Below are positions 3,945 through 24,338 of a stretch of 64,000 nucleotides of DNA, in pieces (within the stretch, counting starts at the first letter, position 1; every line of letters starts with the position of its first letter). The notes under the pieces are model-generated. The model did no database searches, was not told the DNA's origin, and saw only the letters and a program-made list of their open reading frames with translations. Location of the stretch: contig JAQBQT010000027.1 of NCBI GenBank assembly GCA_028286835.1, positions 14,442 to 78,441 of the forward strand, in the 5' to 3' direction. Both the position numbers and the translations under genes were made by a program. Source of the stretch: Candidatus Parcubacteria bacterium (lineage in GTDB: Bacteria > Patescibacteriota > Minisyncoccia > Phycocordibacterales > PALSA-1337).

Positions 3945-5804
3945 CTATCCTAAGACAGCCTTGATGCGTCGAATGCCCTGTGAGATGGCTTCTTCCTTCT
4001 GGATCTTGAACTTCCACTTCCCTTCGGGACCTGCGAGTTCGGATGTATTCTTCACGTGAGGGCCGCCGCAGAATTCTTTTGAGTACGCGGAAGCGATATC
4101 GTTGCCGATGAAGTAAATGGAGATCTCGTCGCCATATTTTTCAGCAAAGAAATGGCGGGCGCCGGTCTTCTCGGCTTCGGCCTTCGGCATGGTGACCTGA
4201 TTCACGGGCATTTTGGCGGCTATCTTCTCGTTAATGATGTCCTCGACACGCTTCTTCTCATCGTCGGTCATCTTGGCTCCGTATGAAAAATCGAAACGCA
4301 GGCGCTCTGCGGTGATGTTGGATCCTTTCTGGCCCACTCCCTCTCCGAGCACGTCATGGAGGGCCTGATGCAGGAGGTGCGTCGCGGTGTGATAGCGGAC
4401 GACCTGAGGATCGTCGGCATTTGCGAGGCCGCCTTTGAATTTCTGCTCGGCGCCTGCGCGCGAGAGGTCTTGATGCTTCTTGAATTCCGCTTCGAAGGCC
4501 GCAGTGTCTACCGTCAGGCCTCTTTCTGCGGCAAGCTCCTTGGTCACGTCGATGGGCAGGCCGTATGAAGAGAAAAGAAGGAACGCATCAGCGCCTGAGA
4601 CATTGCCTGATACGGCGAGCCGGTCGAATTCCTTCATGCCATGTGCGAGAGCTTCGGCGAACTTGGTCGCTTCATCGAGCAGTACCTGCTTGATCGTGTC
4701 GGACTTCTGGGCGAGCTCCGGATATGCGACAAGGTATGTGTTCGTGAGCGTATCGACAAATTTTGAAATGCGTCCGGCATCGAGCTTCTTGTCCGTCATG
4801 CTTATGGTCGCGCGGCGGATGAGGCGGCGGAGGATGTATCCACGGTCTGTATTCGAAGGTATGACGCCGTCGGCGATGAGAAATGTGCTCGCGCGAAGGT
4901 GGTCGGCAATGACACGCTTGTTGCGCAGGCTCTGCGACGGATTCTTCATGAGGTCCATGACCGGTTTCAGGAGATCGGTGTCGTATATGTTGTCGACGCC
5001 TTGCAAGGTCATTGTCAGGCGCTCGAGGCCGGCACCGGTATCGACGGAAGGCTTCGGAAGCTTGCCGATGATCACGCCGTCCTTCTTCTCATATTGCATG
5101 AAGACGTCATTCCAGATCTCGATGATGTCGCGCACGTCGTCAGCCTGGACGTATTCGGCATGCGTAAGGGTCCTGCCGGCGAATTTTCCGGAGACGTCGT
5201 AGAACATCTCGGTGTCAGGGCCGCACGGGCCGTTGTCGCCTGCTTCCCACCAGTTGTTCTTGGCTGGCATATAGAAGATGCGGCCGGCTTCGCCCTGCGT
5301 CGTATCGCCTCCGGCATCGATGCGGTTCTTCTTGAAGATCTCGCGCCAGATGGCAGCCGCTTCGGTGTCGCGCGGAGCGACCGCATCGCCCTCGAATACG
5401 GTCACGTACAGGCGCTGAGGATCAAGGCCGAGGCCCTCTTCCTTGTTGGTCAGGAATTCATAGCTCCAGTTGATCGCCTCTTCCTTGAAATAATCGCCGA
5501 GGGACCAGTTGCCGAGCATCTCGAAGAACGTCGCGTGCGTCTTGTCACCTATGTCGTCTATGTCCACAGTGCGGAGGCATTTCTGGGCGTCCACGAGGCG
5601 GGTCCCGGCCGGGTGCTGCTTGCCGAGCAAGAAAGGCACGAGAGGCTGCATGCCTGCCGTATTGAAGAGGGTCGCGTTCGTTACGCCCTTCTCGTCAGGG
5701 GTGACAAGCGACGCGGACGGTATGACCGCATGCCCGCGCTTCTCGAAAAATGCCAGGAATCGAAGGCGTATTTCAGCCGATGTCATCGGCGAGATTGGGT
5801 TCAT
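3945..5804 (-). CDS. alaS: alanyl-tRNA synthetase, short form ending after the editing domain
   Basis: The AlaRS catalytic-core N-terminus is present (SAEIRLRFLAFFEKRGH...FNTAGMQPL). Editing-domain motifs are present (HTATHLLHQALHDVLG and CGGPHV). The 619-aa product ends at RRIKAVLG with no C-Ala domain. The likely true start is the internal Met at about 5786 (MTSAEIR). Confidence 0.9.
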   Translation of the reverse strand: MNPISPMTSAEIRLRFLAFFEKRGHAVIPSASLVTPDEKGVTNATLFNTAGMQPLVPFLLGKQHPAGTRLVDAQKCLRTVDIDDIGDKTHATFFEMLGNWSLGDYFKEEAINWSYEFLTNKEEGLGLDPQRLYVTVFEGDAVAPRDTEAAAIWREIFKKNRIDAGGDTTQGEAGRIFYMPAKNNWWEAGDNGPCGPDTEMFYDVSGKFAGRTLTHAEYVQADDVRDIIEIWNDVFMQYEKKDGVIIGKLPKPSVDTGAGLERLTMTLQGVDNIYDTDLLKPVMDLMKNPSQSLRNKRVIADHLRASTFLIADGVIPSNTDRGYILRRLIRRATISMTDKKLDAGRISKFVDTLTNTYLVAYPELAQKSDTIKQVLLDEATKFAEALAHGMKEFDRLAVSGNVSGADAFLLFSSYGLPIDVTKELAAERGLTVDTAAFEAEFKKHQDLSRAGAEQKFKGGLANADDPQVVRYHTATHLLHQALHDVLGEGVGQKGSNITAERLRFDFSYGAKMTDDEKKRVEDIINEKIAAKMPVNQVTMPKAEAEKTGARHFFAEKYGDEISIYFIGNDIASAYSKEFCGGPHVKNTSELAGPEGKWKFKIQKEEAISQGIRRIKAVLG

Positions 5805-13092: not shown

Positions 13093-14130
13093 TTAACCGA
13101 GTACCGAGTACTTGCTGTCCTTGTCGCGCTTGAAATACTTCGGATTCTGGAGGTTGACTGCGATGGTGTTCTCCTTGACGTAGCGCTCCTTCATGACCTT
13201 GGCGACTATCTCGTCCTTGGTGAGAGGCCCGCTCTTCTCGAGGATGTGCTTGATGACATCGCGGACGATGCCCGGAGAGTAGCCCCATTCTGCGAGAGCG
13301 TAGAGGCCGCGTCCGACGAGGACGAAGCGCTTATCCTTGATGAGCTCGTTGTGGGTCGTCGCTACATGGGCCTTCTTGTTGAAAAGCTTTTCGATCTGAG
13401 CGGCGACGTCGCGAAAGTGGATCGGCGATCCGTGCTTCCTGATGACGAGGAATGCGTAGTCGCGGACGCCCTTGGTGTGGATGTTCGATGAATTTGTCGC
13501 ACCCCATTCGCCGAGGGCGTTGCGTCCGATCTTCTTGGATATTGAAAGCCAGCGGCGCATGATCTCCTGGTTCTTATAGCGCTCTGAGACTTCCTCGAGG
13601 TGCTGGAGGAGGCGGTTGACCATCTCTGATTCAGGAAGAAGGTCCTCGCTTGAGAGATTTCCGTAGAGCTTCTGGAGGGCATCCTCGACTTTCTTGGCGA
13701 GGGCCTCATTCACGTGCCAGCGATGGCGGAAGTCGTCATCCTCGCGGCGCTTTTTGAAAGGCTCGCCGACCGACAACAGGAAATGGATATGATTCTGGAG
13801 GCCATGCTCCTTGGAGATGTGGCCGAGGAAGTCCTCTTCGACGACGACGCCTCCGAGGGAGTGGAGGAGGGTCTCGATCTCCGCGAAAGCTGCGCGCTCC
13901 TGCTTGAATTCGTCGGACTTGCGGATGACGCCGAGAGCGTAGTTCTCGATCTGGCGGACGCGCTCGCGAGTGATGCCGTATTTCTTGCCGATGGCGTCGA
14001 GGGTCATACGCTTCTCCTCCTTTCCGAGGCCGTAACGGAACACGATGATCTCGCGGGCGCGATCGGGCAATGAGGCCAAAAGGCGCTTCACGACCTGCTT
14101 TGGTTTGAACGATACGGGTGAGGTGGGCAT
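13093..14130 (-). CDS. sigma-70 region-4-like HTH protein with a C-terminal HARE-HTH domain
   Basis: The N-terminal region (LPDRAREIIVFRYGL...MTLDAIGKKYGITRERVRQIENYAL) matches the sigma-70 region 4 helix-turn-helix. The C-terminal region (RFVLVGRGLYALAEWGY) matches the HARE-HTH domain seen in the RNA polymerase delta subunit. No region 2 is present. Confidence 0.6.
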   Translation of the reverse strand: MPTSPVSFKPKQVVKRLLASLPDRAREIIVFRYGLGKEEKRMTLDAIGKKYGITRERVRQIENYALGVIRKSDEFKQERAAFAEIETLLHSLGGVVVEEDFLGHISKEHGLQNHIHFLLSVGEPFKKRREDDDFRHRWHVNEALAKKVEDALQKLYGNLSSEDLLPESEMVNRLLQHLEEVSERYKNQEIMRRWLSISKKIGRNALGEWGATNSSNIHTKGVRDYAFLVIRKHGSPIHFRDVAAQIEKLFNKKAHVATTHNELIKDKRFVLVGRGLYALAEWGYSPGIVRDVIKHILEKSGPLTKDEIVAKVMKERYVKENTIAVNLQNPKYFKRDKDSKYSVLG

Positions 14131-14187: not shown

Positions 14188-17100
14188 TTATGCCGTTACT
14201 ATGTTGACGAGCTTCCCGGGCACCGCTATGACTCTCTGAATTACCTTGTCCTTGAGCCATTTTTCGGCCTCCGGAGCCGATTTTGCCGCCTTTTCGAGCT
14301 CCTCCTTCCCCGCCCCGGAAGGGGCAATAAACGACCCCCTGGTCTTGCCGTTTATCTGCAGAATGATGGTGGCTGTAGCCTCGACTAGAAGCGCGGGATC
14401 GAAGATCGGCCACTCCGAAACGTGAACGGATTTCTTGTTGCCGATATCAGTCCAAAGCTCTTCGGTCACGTGCGGCGCGAAGGGTGCGAGGAGCTTCAGA
14501 TACGTCTCTAGAGTATGGCGGTCCAGGCTCTCGCTCTTTTCGAGCTCGTTGAGCGCGATCATCAGCGTGCTGATGGCGGTATTGAAACGCAGGGACTGAA
14601 TGTCATCCGTGACCTTCTTTATGGCCTTGTGAAGGATGCGGTCATTCTCTGCCGAACTCTTCCCCGCGCCGACCCTCTCAGCTAGTTTCCAAACCCGCTC
14701 GATGAAGCGTCTCGATCCCACCATGCTCTGGGTGCTCCAGGCGATGGCCTGATCGAACGGGCCCATGAACATCTCATATATGCGCAGCGTGTCGGCGCCG
14801 AATTGCTTCACAATGTCGTCCGGATTGACCACATTGCCGAAACGCTTGGACATCTTCCTGCCGTCTTCGGCCATGATGAGCCCGACCGACTGCAATTTCT
14901 TGAATGGTTCGATGCCTGATACCGCTCCGATGTCATACAGGAATTTATGCCAGAAGCGTGCGTAGATGAGGTGGCGTGTGGCATGCTCCGCTCCGCCCAC
15001 GTAAAGGTCGACTGGCGACCAATATTTCTCTTTTGCCGGATCGACGAAGGCCTTCTTGTTATCCGGGTCCATGAATCGCAGGTAATACCAGGAAGATCCC
15101 GCCCACTGCGGCATGGTGTTCGTTTCGCGTTTGGCTTTTCCTTTGCACTGTGGGCACTTCACATTGACCCAGGAATCGATGGCCGCGAGCGGCGACTCGC
15201 CTGTTCCGGTCGGCTCATAGAATTTCACTTTCGGGAGCTTCACAGGCAGATCCTTTTCAGGCACTGCGACCACTCCGCATTCCGGGCAGTGGATGAGCGG
15301 TATCGGCTCGCCCCAATATCGCTGGCGCGAGAAGACCCAGTCGCGGAGCTTGTACTTCACGACTTTCTTCCCGTATTTCTGGACCATCTCCTCCTTGTCT
15401 TCAAGCTTTGTGTCGATAATGGGCAGGTTGTAGACCTTGGCAAACTGGGCATCGCGCTCGTCATGCGAAGGCACTGCCATGACTGCTCCAGTGGCGTAAT
15501 CCGCCAGCACATAGTCCGCTATCCATACAGGAACCTTCTCTCCATTGGCGGGATTGATGGCGCAAAGGCCCTTGAGCTCGACGCCGGTTTTTTCTTTTGT
15601 GCCATCAGTGCGTTCTATGTCGGTCTTTGATTTGGCCCGATCGATGTACGCCTCAACTTCTGCCCTATTGTCTATAAGATCGAGGAATTCCTTCACCCAA
15701 AAATGCTCGGGGGCAAGAACGAGATATGTCACGCCGAAGATGGTGTCCGGACGGGTGGTGAAGACTGCGGCCTTCGGAGTGCAGCATTCGAGGATGGATG
15801 GTTCTTGGGCGCCAGTGAAGTGTTTCTCTACTGCGTCGACTTCGATAACGCCTGCTGATAGCTTCGTACCAAGGTATTTTATGTATTCTGAACGATGAAT
15901 CTCTTTGGTATCAGAGAGGAGTGCGATCCTGCCGCTTGTGAGCTTTTTGATCTGCTCAAAGTCATAGTTCCATGAGAAGTTTGAATGATACGGTCGCTCC
16001 TTTGACTCCTTATTGAAATTCGGTTCGATCGCAGGCGCTACTAAGACCAAGCCGGAGATCTGCTTATTTGATTTCATCAGCGCCTTTAGGGCAGAAACGC
16101 AGCCGAGGCTATGCGCGATGATCACAGTGTTTTTGTCTAACGTGCAGTTCTTGAGGATGAAGTCGACTTGCTCGCTCTCTTTTGGATCATTCGGATTCGG
16201 CAAAGCCGGCGCCTGGACTTCATGACCCTTCTTCTCAAATTCCGTCTTGAGCCATGGGAAGAAATCATCAGCCGGACTTCCTTTGTATCCATGGATGAGC
16301 ACATAGCGTGACTTTTTCTTTGTCAGAGCGAGCTCGAAATCGATCTCAGCCCCTTCGCTCCTTCCGATCCAATTGCGCTGGGCTTCCTTGATCGATTCGG
16401 GCCATTCGAGGAGCGGCTTGATCTCCTGCTTCTTCGCGCCGGTATACAGATCCCAGAGGTACTTCATGTCCTCATGATTGAGGAACTTCTGAACTTCCGC
16501 AGGTGAAAGCCACATCGGATCCTGGAGGTCTTTCTCTTCCTGCGATATATCGGTGCGCTCCCCGTCCTTCAATTCAAAATATCCGCAGACATAATGGGCA
16601 TGACGATTGACTTGTTTGATCACCTGGTAGAAACGGGTGTCCACCTTTCCGACTTCCCTGACGAACCGGACGTTTTTGAAACCAGTCTCTTCTTGTATCT
16701 CGCGTACTCCTGCCGTTCCCATATCTTCGCCTTTCTCGATGCCGCCTATCACAAAGCCCTGCCAGTTGGTGGCTTTCCAGTTCACGCACAGGTATTTGTC
16801 TTCGGACCAATGCCTGATGATGCACACAGCCGCATCACGTTCGATGAACGGCTCGTTTTCATGCGCGGCGCCCTTGCCTTCTCTGGCCGTTACGACCGGT
16901 ATTCCGCCTGTCGCATCGAGGTCCTTGAGCAGCCTGTCAGCATAGTCAGTGATCTTCAGGACCCACTGCCTCATCGGCTTCTTTTCGACGAGCGTGCCGC
17001 AGCGCTCGCATCGGCCGTCCTCAACGTCCTCATTGGCGAGGACCGTCTTATCCGTCGGGCACCAGTTCACTGGCTCGAATGACTCGAAGGCTAAGCCCTT

Positions 17101-17580
17101 CTTGAACATCTGCAAAAAGATCCATTGGGTCCACTTATAGAACTTGGGGTCGGTCGTGTTGACCTCGCGGGACCAATCATAGTCGAAGCCCAAGAGCTCA
17201 AGCTGCTCTTTATAGTGCGCGACGTTCTTGGCGACGGAATCAGCTGGGTTGGTCTTGGTCTTGATGGCGTAGTTCTCGGCGGGCAGGCCGAATGCGTCGA
17301 AGCCCATGGGATGGAGCACATTCATGCCCTGCATGCGCTTCATGCGCGATACGACATCGGTCGCTATATAGCCTTTCGGATGGCCGACATGGAGACCCTC
17401 GCCCGACGGATATGGGAACATGTCGAGCACATAGAATTTGTCCTTGGCGTCCTTGGATTCGGTCGAGCGGTAGACCTTCGACGATGCCCATTTCTTCTGC
17501 CACTTCTTTTCTATCTTGGCCGGGTCATAGGCTTCCTTGGCGGCGCGGGCAGGCGTGGGTTTCTTCATGGCTTCAATCAT
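14188..17580 (-). CDS. leuS: leucyl-tRNA synthetase with two inserted enzymatic domains (NUDIX and serine hydrolase)
   Basis: The class I HIGH motif (HVGHPKGY) and the LeuRS editing-domain motif TTRPDT are present in the 1130-aa product. The additional ~190 aa at residues 225-392 carry a NUDIX box, and those at residues 418-603 carry an IHGY...HSLGC serine-hydrolase region; see the findings. Confidence 0.9.
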   Translation of the reverse strand: MIEAMKKPTPARAAKEAYDPAKIEKKWQKKWASSKVYRSTESKDAKDKFYVLDMFPYPSGEGLHVGHPKGYIATDVVSRMKRMQGMNVLHPMGFDAFGLPAENYAIKTKTNPADSVAKNVAHYKEQLELLGFDYDWSREVNTTDPKFYKWTQWIFLQMFKKGLAFESFEPVNWCPTDKTVLANEDVEDGRCERCGTLVEKKPMRQWVLKITDYADRLLKDLDATGGIPVVTAREGKGAAHENEPFIERDAAVCIIRHWSEDKYLCVNWKATNWQGFVIGGIEKGEDMGTAGVREIQEETGFKNVRFVREVGKVDTRFYQVIKQVNRHAHYVCGYFELKDGERTDISQEEKDLQDPMWLSPAEVQKFLNHEDMKYLWDLYTGAKKQEIKPLLEWPESIKEAQRNWIGRSEGAEIDFELALTKKKSRYVLIHGYKGSPADDFFPWLKTEFEKKGHEVQAPALPNPNDPKESEQVDFILKNCTLDKNTVIIAHSLGCVSALKALMKSNKQISGLVLVAPAIEPNFNKESKERPYHSNFSWNYDFEQIKKLTSGRIALLSDTKEIHRSEYIKYLGTKLSAGVIEVDAVEKHFTGAQEPSILECCTPKAAVFTTRPDTIFGVTYLVLAPEHFWVKEFLDLIDNRAEVEAYIDRAKSKTDIERTDGTKEKTGVELKGLCAINPANGEKVPVWIADYVLADYATGAVMAVPSHDERDAQFAKVYNLPIIDTKLEDKEEMVQKYGKKVVKYKLRDWVFSRQRYWGEPIPLIHCPECGVVAVPEKDLPVKLPKVKFYEPTGTGESPLAAIDSWVNVKCPQCKGKAKRETNTMPQWAGSSWYYLRFMDPDNKKAFVDPAKEKYWSPVDLYVGGAEHATRHLIYARFWHKFLYDIGAVSGIEPFKKLQSVGLIMAEDGRKMSKRFGNVVNPDDIVKQFGADTLRIYEMFMGPFDQAIAWSTQSMVGSRRFIERVWKLAERVGAGKSSAENDRILHKAIKKVTDDIQSLRFNTAISTLMIALNELEKSESLDRHTLETYLKLLAPFAPHVTEELWTDIGNKKSVHVSEWPIFDPALLVEATATIILQINGKTRGSFIAPSGAGKEELEKAAKSAPEAEKWLKDKVIQRVIAVPGKLVNIVTA

Positions 17581-17651: not shown

Positions 17652-18782
17652 CTATCCTTTTAGGGCCAGATCAGCCTCGCTCAGCTTCACCGGTATGAAG
17701 AGCCGAGTATTCTGATTCATGGTACCCGCGGCTATTTCCAATCGAGGCATCTTGAATGCATGATCAAGCTTCTTAAGCCTGTCCAACTCTTCCTTGACGA
17801 CGTTGTGCAGGAAGTTGGCACGTGAACGGGCCTCGAATTCTGCGCGCTTGCGCTGCGGACCTGTCTCGTCGCGAAAAACTGAAGAAGCCACCAAAAGAAG
17901 ACCGTCTCCTTTGGATATCTTTCCTTGCTTCAGATTTGAAAACAGAATGCTGCACGCTACTTGTATGTGCTTGGCCTTTCCGTCATTGAAGGGACCGACA
18001 ATGAGCATCTGATTCGGCTGGTGATGCCAGTCGAACCCTCTACCGTAGCCGAGGATATTTTCTTTATGGTCGATATCCGCTATGGGCCGATTGATCTTGC
18101 GAACTTCAGCGATATGCCTGACGTTGCCGACGCAGAGCGGAATGAGGCTTTCGATCTTGTCCCGGGTCATGTCCGGATACAATTCCTCTAGCTTCATACG
18201 CAGAGATATGGGGTCTTCAGTGCCGACTTCCGACAAGTCCAGCTTCTTTCCATTGTTGCCATGGAATACCAGCGAATCCTCGTCAGTTTCGATGCCGACT
18301 TGAATGGGATGAACTATTCCATGATCGGCGCCAAATATGTCCTCGATGTCGCGAACAGTACCCTGCGTGTAGGAACGAGCCGCTTTGACATCGCAGCTGA
18401 AACCTTTGCATCCACGGTGGGCAGGATCGCCTTTTGACCAATGATAGGTCACGAGGACGATCGAGCCTGACCGGCCGCTCTCAATGCCGTGATTGATCCA
18501 TTCGGCTAGCACCGCTCCAAACTCGCTTCCGAGGTCGAATTTGCCGCCCAGATCCCGGTATGGCTGAATGATGCCAAGGGGCGTCTGTGTCATGACAGCC
18601 ATGTTGATGCGGCCATCCATGCACTTAAGAGCTGCTATCTGGGCCGTATACGTCTTCCGGTACTGGCGCCTCAAGAGCGTCTGCCCAGGTTCCGTGTATT
18701 TGTTGCTCTGTTCCCGATTGTATTTCAGGAACGAGGTGCTGATCGAATGTGATGTAGGCATAAGGATAAAGTTGCGGTTCAA
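17652..18782 (-). CDS. hypothetical protein with weak beta-carbonic-anhydrase-like motifs
   Basis: The 376-aa ORF contains CMDGR, then G-x6-R-x2-G, then HRGCKG, which loosely recalls the CxDxR...HxxCG zinc ligands of beta-carbonic anhydrase. The functional call is weak. Confidence 0.5.
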   Translation of the reverse strand: MNRNFILMPTSHSISTSFLKYNREQSNKYTEPGQTLLRRQYRKTYTAQIAALKCMDGRINMAVMTQTPLGIIQPYRDLGGKFDLGSEFGAVLAEWINHGIESGRSGSIVLVTYHWSKGDPAHRGCKGFSCDVKAARSYTQGTVRDIEDIFGADHGIVHPIQVGIETDEDSLVFHGNNGKKLDLSEVGTEDPISLRMKLEELYPDMTRDKIESLIPLCVGNVRHIAEVRKINRPIADIDHKENILGYGRGFDWHHQPNQMLIVGPFNDGKAKHIQVACSILFSNLKQGKISKGDGLLLVASSVFRDETGPQRKRAEFEARSRANFLHNVVKEELDRLKKLDHAFKMPRLEIAAGTMNQNTRLFIPVKLSEADLALKG

Positions 18783-20845: not shown

Positions 20846-22294
20846 TTACAGCACTTCCCTGGCGCCTTTCTCGTATCGCGTGAGCGGCACGTTCTTCCAG
20901 GATTTGATGACGGCTTCGATGAATTTCCATGAAGCCATGATCTCCTCGGTCGAGGCAAACAATGTCTGATCTCCTACGAATGCGTCATGAATGAGCCGTT
21001 CATAATCGTTCGGCATGATGACCCAGCCCGGAGTCGCCTGCTCGGAATATTTGAACTTGAGGGTCTTCGGCTCCACATTGAATTCAAGCCCCGGCGTCTT
21101 CACAAAGAATTTTATCTTGATGCCCTCGTCAGGCTGAATGCGGAACGTAAGGATGTTCTGGCTTTCTTCTGCTCGTGCTGGATCGGCTGAGGATGTTGGC
21201 GCCTTCTTGTCGCTCTTGAAATAGACATCGATCTCGGTTTTTGATTCCGACAAAGCCTTGCCGCTCTCGAGGTAGAACGGGACGCCCTTCCATCGCTTTG
21301 AATTGACGAGTGATTTGATGCGGAAATATGTTTCGGTCTGCGAATCCTTTGGTACGTTCTCTTCGTTCGTGTAACCGATGTATTGGCCGCGGATCGTGCA
21401 TTCCTTCAGGCTCTTGCCCGAAGCGGCCTTGAGCTTGCCCAGCACCGCAGCACGCTCCTTGCGGATGGCTTCGGCCACGAATGATTTTGGTTTGTCCATG
21501 CAGACAGTAGCGAGCATCATGAGAACATGGTTCTGCCCCACGTCCTTCAGTGCGCCGATCGGATCATATGAATCCCCTCGGCCGCTGATGTCGCCCTGTT
21601 CGAATATCTTGACGTGCACCTTGTCGATGAATTCGCGGCGCCAGATCGGCTCGAAGAGCGAATTGCTGAAGCGGAACGCGATGATGTTCTGCAGTGATTC
21701 CTTGGCGAGATAATGATCGATGCGGAAAATCTGCTTCTCCTTGAAGAGCTTTGCTAAGAGCTTGTCGAGAGACTGCGCGGTGTCGAGGTCGCGGCCGAAC
21801 GGCTTCTCGATGAGGACACGCGTCCACCCTGTGTCATCAGCGCACGGCTCTGTCAATCCGGATGCAGCGAGGTTGTTCAAAATGCCTTCGTAGAGGGATG
21901 GGGGCACCGAGAGATGAAAAAGCTTGTTCGAGCACTGGCCCCATCTGCGATCTATGTCTGTAATGCGCTCGGAAAGCCTCACGTATCCCGCCCGGTCGCC
22001 AAATATTCCCTGCTCATATGACATATGATCGAGAAAGTGCTTGATGTCCTCTTCCTTGAATTGGCCGGGCTTCACATTCATGTGCGTGCGGATGAGCTCG
22101 CGGAATTCCTCGCGGGAGAATGGGCGGCGGGAAAATCCGATGATGGCGAAGCGCTGAGGGAGCATCTTCTTGGCATACAGGCTTAGGAGGGCCGGAATGA
22201 GCTTGCGCGCGGCAAGGTCTCCGGTGATGCCGAAGATGACGAAGATAGTCGGATGAAGCGCCGCTCTGGCGGCTTGGGATTGGTTCTCTTCCAT
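20846..22294 (-). CDS. zwf: glucose-6-phosphate 1-dehydrogenase
   Basis: The NADP-binding N-terminus (FVIFGITGDLAARKLIPAL) and the active-site RIDHYLAKE motif are present. The product is 482 aa. Confidence 0.9.
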   Translation of the reverse strand: MEENQSQAARAALHPTIFVIFGITGDLAARKLIPALLSLYAKKMLPQRFAIIGFSRRPFSREEFRELIRTHMNVKPGQFKEEDIKHFLDHMSYEQGIFGDRAGYVRLSERITDIDRRWGQCSNKLFHLSVPPSLYEGILNNLAASGLTEPCADDTGWTRVLIEKPFGRDLDTAQSLDKLLAKLFKEKQIFRIDHYLAKESLQNIIAFRFSNSLFEPIWRREFIDKVHVKIFEQGDISGRGDSYDPIGALKDVGQNHVLMMLATVCMDKPKSFVAEAIRKERAAVLGKLKAASGKSLKECTIRGQYIGYTNEENVPKDSQTETYFRIKSLVNSKRWKGVPFYLESGKALSESKTEIDVYFKSDKKAPTSSADPARAEESQNILTFRIQPDEGIKIKFFVKTPGLEFNVEPKTLKFKYSEQATPGWVIMPNDYERLIHDAFVGDQTLFASTEEIMASWKFIEAVIKSWKNVPLTRYEKGAREVL

Positions 22295-22560: not shown

Positions 22561-22566
22561 GGTTTG

Positions 22567-22640
22567 TGCACCCTGCAGGGCTCGAACCTGCGACCTCGCC
22601 CGTGTGAAGGGCGCGCTCTAGCCAACTGAGCTAAGGGTGC
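22567..22640 (-). tRNA. tRNA-Val (anticodon CAC)
   Basis: A manual cloverleaf can be drawn: acceptor stem GCACCCT/AGGGTGC, anticodon stem CGCCC/GGGCG with loop TTCACAC, and T arm GCAGG-TTCGAGC-CCTGC. No CCA is encoded. Confidence 0.85.
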
Positions 22641-22729
22641 GGTGAAAACAGCTTACGGCATTTTTGAATATTCCTCAAATCATGCTAGATTGTAGTGCGT
22701 CCGAATAGCGAGGATCGCGATCAGCTTTC

Positions 22730-22802
22730 GGGCCATTAGCTCATCTGGTAGAGCGCACCCATGGCATGGGTGAGGTGGCCGGTTCGAGTCCGGCATGGTC
22801 CA
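22730..22802 (+). tRNA. tRNA-Ala (anticodon GGC)
   Basis: The acceptor stem GGGCCAT/ATGGTCC carries the G3:U70 alanine identity pair. The anticodon loop is ATGGCAT. The T loop is TTCGAGT. Confidence 0.85.
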
Positions 22803-22864
22803 CACATAGAATGGGAAAGTTCCTCTGGCGAATCAGGACTGGAATGTGGTATCGTAGCTCACAT

Positions 22865-22935
22865 CGGGGCGTAGTATAGTGGTAGTATACACGCTTCGGG
22901 TGCGTGAGGTCCGAGTCCGATTCTCGGCGCCCCGA
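22865..22935 (+). tRNA. tRNA-Pro (anticodon CGG)
   Basis: The acceptor stem is CGGGGCG/CGCCCCG. The anticodon stem CACGC/GCGTG closes loop TTCGGGT, which has G37. The T arm is CCGAG-TCCGATT-CTCGG. Confidence 0.75.
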
Positions 22936-22976
22936 CATGAATTTATTCCGCCGATGTGCACTCGATGGCGGAGCCA

Positions 22977-23047
22977 GGGCCTATGGTCTAGTGGCATGAC
23001 GTGGCATTCGCATTGCCAAGACCCGAGTTCGATTCTCGGTAGGTCCA
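22977..23047 (+). tRNA. tRNA-Ala (anticodon CGC)
   Basis: The acceptor stem GGGCCTA/TAGGTCC has G3:U70. The anticodon stem TGGCA/TGCCA closes loop TTCGCAT. The T arm is CCGAG-TTCGATT-CTCGG. Confidence 0.8.
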
Positions 23048-23087
23048 CAAAAATAACGACCAAGGGTCGTATATTTTTGTAGGATGT

Positions 23088-23125
23088 CTGGATCGTTTAC
23101 GATCCAGACGCCACAAAGATAGATC
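23088..23125 (+). repeat. tRNA-Ala-linked conserved hairpin element, copy A
   Basis: The sequence is TGTAGGATGTCTGGATCGTTTACGATCCAGACGCCACA, with a perfect 10-bp stem GTCTGGATCG/CGATCCAGAC and loop TTTA. It lies 41 nt downstream of tRNA-Ala(CGC). A near-identical copy lies at 24339-24376. Confidence 0.5.
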
Positions 23126-23136
23126 GTATAAATAAA

Positions 23137-23162
23137 AAGCCGCCCATTTGCATGAGCGGCTT
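23137..23162 (-). terminator. rho-independent terminator for the PEP-CTERM protein gene
   Basis: A 7-bp stem AAGCCGC/GCGGCTT with a 12-nt loop is followed on the minus strand by TTTTTATTTAT. Confidence 0.5.
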
Positions 23163-23183
23163 GAGGTTGAAGCTGTACTGAAA

Positions 23184-24047
23184 CTAACAACTGACTGCGA
23201 CCAACGCTGGCTGCCGGTTGGAACGGATCCTTCTGATAACTACGAAGCCCATAAGGCTGATCGCAGCTAAAAGACCGTACGTCGCCGGCTCGGGAACTGC
23301 GGAGAAACCTCGTGCCTCTCCTGCCCCAGTGACATTCCTAACGTACACTGTATTTTCAAAGCCTTGGTTTTTGATTTCAAGGCTGATCGAAGTGACGTCT
23401 GGAACTTGGGCATCGCTGATGGTATCGATAGTGACTCCGTCTTTTACGAAGGAAACGCCGACACCTTGCTTGTACTTGATCTGCCAATCCGACCAGATGC
23501 TTTGCGGTTCGACATCTTCGGGCCGCGGATTCATGTACGATAGCGAGCCGTGCTCTACTCCGTTTACTTCCATTGTCCATAGCATCTTCTGTGGATCAAT
23601 AGAGGTTCCATTGTGAAGGATGAGCTTCACGCTGTTGCCATCGGCAGTTTGCACCCACATTTCTGCGTCATACGCAATTGGAACAAGATTATTCCCGAAA
23701 GAGACCTTGTCCACGAACATGTTGGTTGGAACGCCGATGCCTGCACCGACGATCCAATCCCCTTTCAGATCCACCAGCTTTGTCCCGCCTTGAAAGTTGG
23801 ACAATTGATTCTGCGGCTGATCCGGGGGAAAGTAATCCCGAGGAAGAGCCTGAAGCTTGAGCATGTTGGTGAGGCCGCCGGTGCTTGGGTCGGGTACTGC
23901 AGCGAACGTAGCAGCAGGACTCACATTCGGAGTCCAGCCGTCGGTATTATCGAATTTGTCCAGGAAGTACCCGTTTGAGGGACCCTGAGCAAACGTTGAA
24001 CTGACAAAGCTGATCGCAAGGATCAGCGAGACTAGTAGTTTATTCAT
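23184..24047 (-). CDS. secreted protein with a C-terminal PEP-CTERM sorting signal
   Basis: The product has an N-terminal signal peptide (MNKLLVSLILAISFVSSTFAQG). The C-terminus is VPEPATYGLLAAISLMGFVVIRRIRSNRQ, which is a PEP motif, then a transmembrane helix, then an Arg-rich tail. The product is 287 aa. Confidence 0.7.
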   Translation of the reverse strand: MNKLLVSLILAISFVSSTFAQGPSNGYFLDKFDNTDGWTPNVSPAATFAAVPDPSTGGLTNMLKLQALPRDYFPPDQPQNQLSNFQGGTKLVDLKGDWIVGAGIGVPTNMFVDKVSFGNNLVPIAYDAEMWVQTADGNSVKLILHNGTSIDPQKMLWTMEVNGVEHGSLSYMNPRPEDVEPQSIWSDWQIKYKQGVGVSFVKDGVTIDTISDAQVPDVTSISLEIKNQGFENTVYVRNVTGAGEARGFSAVPEPATYGLLAAISLMGFVVIRRIRSNRQPALVAVSC

Positions 24048-24225
24048 ATGTTAACGAGCTAAGTGTGAAAGGCTGAGTAGTTTGGAAAGCCAAATTCTTC
24101 TGCCTTGAGTGAGTTATCTGCCATTGAGCATCATATCACAACAAACCATAAAAAGCAAGATACATTGAAAAAACGGCTATAATCATGTATTCTCTCTCAG
24201 TAGCATGTTTTTTCGTCCCTCGTTT

Positions 24226-24298
24226 GGGCCTGTAGCTCATCTGGTAGAGCGCCGCTTTTGCAAAGCGGAGGCACGCGGTTCGAGTCCGCGCAGGTCCA
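24226..24298 (+). tRNA. tRNA-Ala (anticodon UGC)
   Basis: The acceptor stem GGGCCTG/CAGGTCC has G3:U70. The anticodon stem CCGCT/AGCGG closes loop TTTGCAA. The T loop is TTCGAGT. Confidence 0.85.
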
Positions 24299-24338
24299 CA
24301 AAATCAAGGAGCGTAACGACTATAATCTTGTAGGATGT

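Follow-up and report, generated by a model that had tools for sequence, protein, structure and literature searches.

A Parcubacteria leucyl-tRNA synthetase carrying nested NUDIX and serine hydrolase domains

What are two hydrolases doing inside a leucyl-tRNA synthetase (LeuRS)? The question is raised by the leuS gene in a 64,000-nucleotide (nt) stretch of DNA from a Candidatus Parcubacteria bacterium (contig JAQBQT010000027.1), the whole of which is referred to here as the window. The gene occupies positions 14188–17580 on the reverse strand, on which all parts of leuS given below also lie, and encodes a bacterial-type LeuRS of 1130 amino acids (aa) with two nested domains. An earlier note made from the sequence alone had described one continuous frame carrying a NUDIX hydrolase and a YdeN/RBBP9-type serine hydrolase, and translation, Pfam searches and the NCBIfam model TIGR00396 (leuS_bact, 961.3 bits against a cutoff of 548.4) bear out the single uninterrupted frame. 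In the whole protein Pfam detected tRNA-synt_1, the LeuRS editing domain PF13603 (aa 603–730) and Anticodon_1, with NUDIX (PF00293) and Ser_hydrolase (PF06821) nested within the LeuRS frame as that note had anticipated.

The positions of the inserts relative to the LeuRS parts rest on a sequence alignment to Thermus thermophilus LeuRS (1h3n; residues given as Tth), which yields five aligned blocks with two inserts between them; nucleotide coordinates of the LeuRS parts were checked by translation. Insert 1 (aa 224–390, 167 residues, 16411–16911) is a NUDIX hydrolase domain which falls exactly between Tth 209 and 210, immediately before the strand leading into the CP1 editing domain and within a few bases of the span first proposed (about 16405–16908). 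Pfam places PF00293 at aa 251–372 (45.0 bits, cutoff 21.1, E = 1.4e-11), and besides exceeding the gathering threshold the domain has the alpha/beta/alpha fold of Nudix enzymes. Its Nudix box GGIEKGEDMGTAGVREIQEETGF (aa 279–301, 16678–16746), rightly called a textbook example at the outset, fits the consensus GX5EX7REUXEEXGU at all defined positions and contains the metal-binding residues Glu294, Glu297 and Glu298. Further residues conserved in this NUDIX subfamily are R248, K322, N325-R326, E349 and W357 (protein numbering).

Insert 2 (aa 418–603, 186 residues, 15772–16329, the coordinates originally given) lies between Tth 236 and 243 and is an alpha/beta serine hydrolase. Pfam detected PF06821 at aa 426–520 (49.3 bits, cutoff 22, E = 7.1e-13), a match which takes in only profile positions 1–94 of 172. 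Using phmmer, insert residues 9–165 align to residues 7–162 of Bacillus subtilis YdeN (1uxo; E = 2.2e-13), and the insert alone matches human RBBP9 (2qs9; E = 2e-6). No match was returned when insert 2 alone was used as the query of a large protein database, probably owing to a word-index limit rather than a true absence. Like YdeN and RBBP9, the insert has the family signature, a length of about 185 aa, the HG motif, the xHSxG elbow and a Ser-Asp-His triad, but those two proteins are free-standing, whereas the insert is built into the first beta-hairpin of CP1, a few residues ahead of the T-rich editing motif. The nucleophile elbow AHSLG (aa 489–493, 16102–16116, with Ser491), the oxyanion HG (aa 430–431, 16288–16293) and the catalytic His587 (15820–15822; HF at aa 587–588) are conserved in all 57 homologous inserts at this place (site B below), and the catalytic Asp557 (15910–15912) in 56 of the 57. 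All of the motifs quoted in the earlier note (the Nudix box, AHSLG and HF) are present; its placing of both inserts at the hinge leading into CP1 is correct as to the entry to CP1, at whose N-terminal side both occupy surface loops, but insert 2 sits in the first CP1 hairpin and not at the hinge proper. Both modules are likely to be catalytically competent, because the Nudix box is perfect, the triad and HG are kept and both inserts are maintained across orthologues.

That this architecture is real we regard as near certain. The AlphaFold2 (AF2) model of the full-length protein, built on a 101-sequence alignment, has a mean predicted local distance difference test score (pLDDT) of 90.5 and a predicted template-modelling score (pTM) of 0.79. 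Both inserts are mostly above 90 (insert 2 showing beta-alpha alternation at pLDDT >90), and the model is confident across all insert junctions (TGGIP...EIKPL, then LEWPE, for insert 1; ALTKK...CCTPK, then AAVFTT, for insert 2). The top Foldseek matches of this model were bacterial LeuRS, with a target-normalised TM of up to 0.81; the search returned LeuRS structures only and nothing informative on the inserts. An identical protein is already present in NCBI as a ‘leucine--tRNA ligase’ of a Parcubacteria metagenome-assembled genome (MAG), and orthologues with the same insertions, the existence of which would support the proposal, were found at 83% and 77% identity in other assemblies with both inserts at the same positions. 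Among orthologues with cores 57–91% identical, identity is 30–84% for the NUDIX domain and 34–76% for the serine hydrolase; both inserts evolve faster than the core yet are clearly maintained. GC content is 0.47–0.49 over insert 2 against about 0.55 in the flanks, a slight dip.

Around the inserts the synthetase itself is conventional. The N-terminal catalytic half, with the Rossmann fold and Zn-1 region (aa 1–223, 16912–17580), aligns to Tth 2–209 and includes the HIGH motif HVGH (aa 64–67, 17380–17391). A native LeuRS segment between the inserts (aa 391–417, 16330–16410; Tth 210–236) runs into the first CP1 strand, and the CP1 core (aa 604–722, 15415–15771; PF13603, Tth 243–359) holds the T-rich motif TTRPDT (aa 608–613, 15742–15759) and the editing residue Asp707 at the end of AVPSHD (15460–15462). 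By Pfam and the Tth alignment, the C-terminal half (aa 723–1130, 14188–15414) comprises the second catalytic half and the anticodon-binding and C-terminal domains, with the KMSKS motif as KMSKR (aa 909–913, 14842–14856). Residues H64, G66, H67, Q401, W404–G406, S408, G410, Asp707, K909, M910 and K912 are invariant across 101 homologues, and QxNWIG, S408 and G410 of the inter-insert segment, together with T608, T609, R610, D612 and T613, occur in 57 of 57 homologues with a site B insert.

The class Ia Rossmann core, HIGH, KMSKS, Zn-1, a CP1 domain after Zn-1 with its T-rich motif and Asp, and the anticodon-binding and C-terminal domains are all shared with the canonical enzymes of T. thermophilus (1h3n/2bte) and Escherichia coli (4aq7). 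The differences are the additional 167 and 186 residues, which form two autonomous enzyme domains, and two losses. The leucine-specific domain is absent, aa 905–909 spanning Tth 580–637 in the 1h3n alignment; this domain is found in many, not all, bacterial LeuRS, and some other small-genome LeuRS also lack it. Also missing are the last ~45 residues of CP1, where aa 722–736 span Tth 359–410. At the level of sequence the protein retains every hallmark of aminoacylation and CP1 editing, and it belongs with the bacterial LeuRS, showing each defining feature tested except the optional leucine-specific domain.

The window protein is not an isolated case. All 120 of the best LeuRS matches (932–1564 aa) carry NUDIX and/or Ser_hydrolase domains, some with an additional HAD domain, and every taxonomically named one belongs to the Patescibacteria/Candidate Phyla Radiation (CPR), a lineage which was reportedly described in 2015 as making up more than 15% of bacterial diversity. 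Mapping these matches onto an insert-free core (q, query numbering) defined at least five insertion sites: site A after q223 (79/120; NUDIX, single or tandem), site B at q417/604 (57/120; Ser_hydrolase), site C at q722–737 at the end of CP1 (82/120; NUDIX), site D at q~815 (7/120; HAD_2) and site E at q~770 (3/120; Ser_hydrolase in P0065 and a small unknown domain in two others). LeuRS with NUDIX have one to three copies of it, over two sites, and at least 15 domain combinations occur. The commonest architectures are B + C (n = 24), A + C (n = 19) and A only (n = 15), followed by C only (n = 10), A + B as in the window (n = 9) and A + B + C (n = 9). Serine hydrolase domains are also found elsewhere in LeuRS, at site E (P0065), after a site C NUDIX (L101) and further towards the C-terminus (L103). 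Inteins were considered as the source of the extra length in relatives of 1300–1560 aa and rejected, as this consists of further NUDIX copies and HAD_2. The window protein is one member of a large combinatorial family of CPR composite synthetases, apparently undescribed.

Several features of this family deserve separate mention. The CP1-end segment missing from the window protein, conserved as ‘G-L-NSG-F-G...I’, is kept by relatives with a site C NUDIX, and it may be that the lineage of the window protein lost the segment together with a site C NUDIX. The small domain at site E (P0107, aa 777–902; P0063, aa 749–821) is an insertion of about 75–125 aa inside the Zn-binding CxxC region, without any significant match in Pfam; our impression, and only that, is of something reminiscent of ASCH/PUA-like RNA-binding domains. 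Members of the family stand in public databases under generic and at times incorrect names: in NCBI some full-length ones bear the name ‘alpha/beta fold hydrolase’ and others ‘class I tRNA ligase family protein’ (P0018, P0033), and the nested domains appear to mislead automatic annotation. The earlier note was not aware of a LeuRS of this kind. This stands for the literature searched, in which subscription journals were mostly outside the scope and no account of NUDIX- or hydrolase-bearing LeuRS, IleRS or ProRS was found, but not for the sequence databases, where such combinations abound.

The NUDIX copies form one related group (n = 186), with one subtype present at both site A and site C. 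The full box is kept in 144/186 and the three metal-binding Glu residues in 180/186. A recurrent variant, seen chiefly in the second copy where inserts stand in tandem at site A, has Glu7 changed to Gln and Arg15 lost together (e.g. GGAEGDQTAVEGAIAEIREETGY) while all three metal-binding Glu are kept (P0005, P0009–P0011, P0013–P0015, P0017, P0047, P0059, P0060 and others). In Nudix enzymes Glu7 and Arg15 of the box form a salt bridge, hence these changes look like a covarying pair. The group is also narrow: among 1.84 billion cluster representatives the NUDIX insert has only 392 relatives at E ≤ 1e-3, and 96 of the 149 listed representatives of these are LeuRS or LeuRS fragments. A scan of GTDB species genomes with a six-sequence NUDIX alignment, the taxonomic counts of which are lower bounds, placed the NUDIX inside leuS in 17 of the 18 best loci, including MAGs labelled Saccharibacteria and a few labelled as Bacillota (Clostridia, Bacilli, Bacillales) or Mycoplasmatota. 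Seven loci (L013, L017, L021–L025) encode LeuRS of about 940–1046 aa in which site C holds a NUDIX; the labels of their MAGs are Clostridia, Bacilli, Mycoplasmatota, Bacillales, Muribaculaceae and even Methanosarcinales, and these non-CPR labels reflect either gene transfer outside the CPR or mis-binned contigs.

The same modules recur in other synthetases. In ProRS, a NUDIX of the LeuRS-type subfamily is inserted after the anticodon-binding domain and before the C-terminal domain (L005:2762–4693, P0204), scoring 196 bits against the LeuRS-NUDIX hidden Markov model. The same serine hydrolase subfamily is nested in IleRS at the N-terminal CP1 boundary, sometimes in two copies (L087, L092, L093, L109), where it may be adjoined by a NUDIX (L093) or a low-molecular-weight phosphatase domain, LMWPc (L109), and another IleRS contains His_Phos_1 (L164:5984–8501).

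Furthermore, the modules occur as separate genes beside synthetases. In L163, which is syntenic with the window (YceG; YchF, 65% identical; LeuRS core, 55–70%; Sigma70_r4/HARE-HTH gene, 65%), LeuRS is 811 aa long and without inserts, and leuS is preceded by a gene for a 169-aa NUDIX (full box, 44% identity to the insert) whose end is 4 nt upstream of it. Two further loci have a free-standing NUDIX directly upstream of an insert-free leuS, in one case (L002) a protein of 161 aa and 41% identity to the insert. In the other (L004:1482–10389) the co-directional genes encode MetRS, an unknown protein, TatD, a NUDIX (P0131), two small open reading frames (ORFs), an HD-domain YfbR-like phosphohydrolase, an unknown 217-aa protein, a second NUDIX and the insert-free LeuRS, a possible operon joining synthetases with nucleotide hydrolases. 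When ten free-standing NUDIX genes were sampled, five proved to be beside or close to synthetase genes, namely leuS in three cases, a NUDIX-bearing proS in one and both argS and ileS in another (binomial P ~0.002 if a generous 0.1 is taken as background). A free-standing serine hydrolase gene abuts ileS in L120 and L134. The pairing of NUDIX with an alpha/beta hydrolase is echoed outside any synthetase in L159:131–1446, where the gene for a 248-aa alpha/beta hydrolase (Abhydrolase_1/Peptidase_S9 matches) is immediately followed by that for a LeuRS-type free-standing NUDIX (P0272).

We argue that the modules are coupled to synthetases and would not be chance insertions, because a narrow NUDIX subfamily occupies two LeuRS sites, recurs in ProRS and lies beside leuS, and because the serine hydrolase subfamily recurs at the CP1 boundary of IleRS and abuts ileS.

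What might such coupling serve? Our preferred reading, to which we give a probability of roughly 0.4, is that the modules are clean-up enzymes physically tied to the synthetase, which would destroy its reactive side products at their place of origin. Dinucleoside polyphosphates arise through attack of ATP, or of another nucleotide, on the aminoacyl-adenylate. Synthetases are listed among the makers of Ap3-5N and related adenylylated compounds (PMC7705103). The NUDIX domain would most probably hydrolyse diadenosine tetraphosphate (Ap4A), Ap3A, ApnN or related cap-like compounds. Its characterised structural neighbours cleave dinucleoside-polyphosphate or cap-like linkages, which lends some support to a suggestion of Ap4A-type hydrolysis made in the earlier note. 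Compared with Ndx1 (1vc8), Rv2985 (9cxx), DIPP1/DDP1 and AvrM14 the insert is only 15–23% identical, and unlike these enzymes it belongs to a narrow subfamily of its own and is nested in a synthetase. Leucyl-adenylate itself, also suggested as a substrate, was set aside: it is an acyl-phosphate and contains no nucleoside-diphosphate-X linkage, and its cleavage by the NUDIX domain found no support here.

The serine hydrolase would most probably cleave acyl (thio)esters of hydrophobic amino acids with a free alpha-amine, with homocysteine thiolactone (from homocysteine editing by LeuRS and IleRS) and stray aminoacyl esters as candidate substrates. RBBP9 removes hydrophobic amino acids with a free alpha-amine and traps Leu/Ile, Met, Phe, Tyr and Trp as acyl-enzyme, biochemistry which gives some support to the esterase role on aminoacyl esters. 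RBBP9 is also cited as a valacyclovir-activating enzyme, and BPHL, another valacyclovir hydrolase, is described as an efficient homocysteine thiolactonase (PMC4198189). Five synthetases edit homocysteine, namely MetRS, ValRS, IleRS, LeuRS and LysRS (PMC5370406). The specific substrates of both modules are offered here as a hypothesis.

A number of observations weigh against clean-up at source. One sampled free-standing NUDIX gene abuts that for ArgRS, an enzyme which forms no adenylate without tRNA, and the top structural neighbour of the NUDIX domain is uncharacterised. The residues with which RBBP9 cages the side chain and anchors the amine are not clearly conserved in insert 2, judging by an alignment read by eye, in which Y99, L103 and E108 (the alpha-amine anchor) correspond to I, F and K, and, for E108, by the conservation profile of the site B inserts. 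When 53 free-standing serine hydrolase loci were probed, 51 had no LeuRS, IleRS or ProRS gene nearby, so that the link of this family to synthetases runs mainly through fusion. Finally, that hydrolases of such different kinds (HAD, LMWPc, His_Phos_1) have been inserted, and at such different sites, would be equally consistent with a scaffold that is simply permissive.

An alternative, which we think unlikely, is that the serine hydrolase is a second deacylase beside the CP1 pocket, removing mis-acylated tRNA-Leu or D-aminoacyl and other aberrant esters with which CP1 copes badly; the NUDIX domain would help by nucleotide or RNA binding or by acting on the end of tRNA or another RNA. The location of insert 2, a few residues ahead of the T-rich motif lining the editing pocket, is what such proofreading would lead one to expect, and the same module stands at the CP1 boundary of IleRS, also an editing synthetase. 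In addition, the RBBP9 family handles free-amino Leu/Ile/Met acyl groups and the aminoacyl ester of a nucleoside analogue, and RNA-decapping enzymes are among the nearest relatives of the NUDIX domain. However, the CP1 editing motifs are fully intact, hence there is no obvious gap to fill; the serine hydrolase also occurs at quite different LeuRS sites and is widely free-standing; the NUDIX domain of ProRS sits at a place unrelated to editing; and no RNA-binding features were identified.

Permissive loops offer another explanation, again an improbable one to our minds. Surface loops of LeuRS, IleRS and ProRS in streamlined genomes may tolerate inserts, and the modules would then be housekeeping salvage hydrolases, fused for co-expression or by neutral drift without a link to aminoacylation. 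Five unrelated folds (NUDIX, alpha/beta hydrolase, HAD, LMWPc and His_Phos_1) and a small unknown domain have been inserted, in many combinations and at five or more LeuRS sites, as would be expected of hitch-hiking. In some NUDIX copies the box has diverged from its canonical form, free-standing serine hydrolase genes are mostly unlinked to synthetases, and nucleotide-metabolism enzymes are neighbours in L004, L005 and L164. Yet the narrow NUDIX subfamily is found overwhelmingly in or beside synthetases, in both class I and class II hosts, and catalytic residues are kept in most copies. Moreover, split and fused forms exist at one syntenic locus (the window and L163), a classic signature of functional coupling.

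Much less probable is defence of the target site, in which the modules would destroy aminoacyl-adenylate mimics (agrocin-84/TM84-like or microcin-C-like) docking in the synthetase, thereby protecting an essential enzyme in organisms living attached to other microbes. LeuRS is indeed the target of TM84, a mimic of leucyl-adenylate, and there are LeuRS variants that confer self-immunity (PDB 3zgz, 5ah5). An IleRS containing an N-acetyltransferase domain is also recognised (NCBIfam NF040702). The GNAT enzymes MccE and RimL detoxify aminoacyl-nucleotide antibiotics, and the serine peptidase MccF cleaves processed microcin C. Neither insert resembles MccF or MccE, however, and Nudix enzymes cleave pyrophosphate linkages, which are absent from these mimics; nearly all of the closest relatives have the architecture, whereas resistance traits are usually patchy, and no toxin or immunity genes were seen nearby.

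An artefact (assembly chimera, a frameshift hiding separate genes, or inteins, the last already thought unlikely in the earlier note) is effectively refuted: for all that the source is a MAG and GC dips over insert 2, the frame is uninterrupted, the inserts recur in independent assemblies and hundreds of related proteins, AF2 is confident at the junctions, Pfam finds no Hint/intein family, the junction residues are not intein-like and the inserts are complete enzymes of other folds.

Precedents are partial. To our knowledge, the accessory domains of bacterial aminoacyl-tRNA synthetases have so far been tRNA-binding or tRNA-editing modules. Among class Ia synthetases bearing an enzyme, the closest precedent to have been recognised is NF040702 (‘isoleucine--tRNA ligase, N-acetyltransferase domain-containing’), which likewise joins a class Ia editing synthetase with an unrelated small-molecule enzyme domain; the existence of this model shows that curators already treat such synthetases as a class of their own. 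It differs in that the host is IleRS and the passenger a GNAT transferase rather than a hydrolase, and the window protein scores 74 bits against its cutoff of 1999. No curated NCBIfam model was found for LeuRS with a NUDIX or serine hydrolase domain. For split and fused accessory hydrolases, the nearest conceptual precedent is ProRS, whose editing modules occur as the nested INS domain or as free-standing YbaK/ProXp, dedicated aminoacyl-tRNA deacylases with a fold of their own. Like these, the NUDIX domain is nested or separate (the window and L163), as is the serine hydrolase with ileS; unlike INS and YbaK, the modules described here come from general hydrolase superfamilies not known to act on tRNA.

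Among the neighbours of leuS, a 376-aa ORF (17652–18782, reverse strand) lies directly upstream, between ychF and leuS, in the interval where L163 has its free-standing NUDIX gene. Its sole match, to the catalytic domain of carboxysome-shell carbonic anhydrase, is marginal (23.3 bits, cutoff 21.5). Directly downstream, a 345-aa protein with Sigma-70 region 4 and HARE-HTH (13093–14130, reverse strand) has the same place in L163 at 65% identity. The window also contains a short alanyl-tRNA synthetase without inserts (619 aa; catalytic domain plus tRNA_SAD), five clustered tRNA genes (Val, Ala x3, Pro), genes for glucose-6-phosphate dehydrogenase and for a PEP-CTERM motif protein and, further along, uvrA, uvrB and uvrC; the spans recorded for other features are, in order of listing, 3945–5804 (reverse strand), 22566–24299, 20846–22294 and 23184–24047.

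An essential and much-studied type of synthetase thus carries two general-purpose hydrolases with intact active sites, which would surprise specialists. More broadly, and more tentatively than for the clean-up reading itself, the CPR and some other reduced-genome bacteria may have evolved a modular quality-control layer of translation. Its hydrolases, nested in or operon-linked to LeuRS, IleRS and ProRS and exchangeable between fused and separate forms, would act on ApnN alarmones, cap precursors, homocysteine thiolactone and stray aminoacyl esters. If this is true, they would represent a new functional class of synthetase accessory domains, apart from the tRNA-directed editing domains. Should the modules act on side products, two orphan families (this NUDIX subfamily and the YdeN-type serine hydrolases of bacteria) would gain substrates open to test, and translation would prove to have a layer of metabolite damage control that is both new and physically coupled, with a bearing on how minimal-genome organisms manage Ap4A-type alarmones and homocysteine toxicity.

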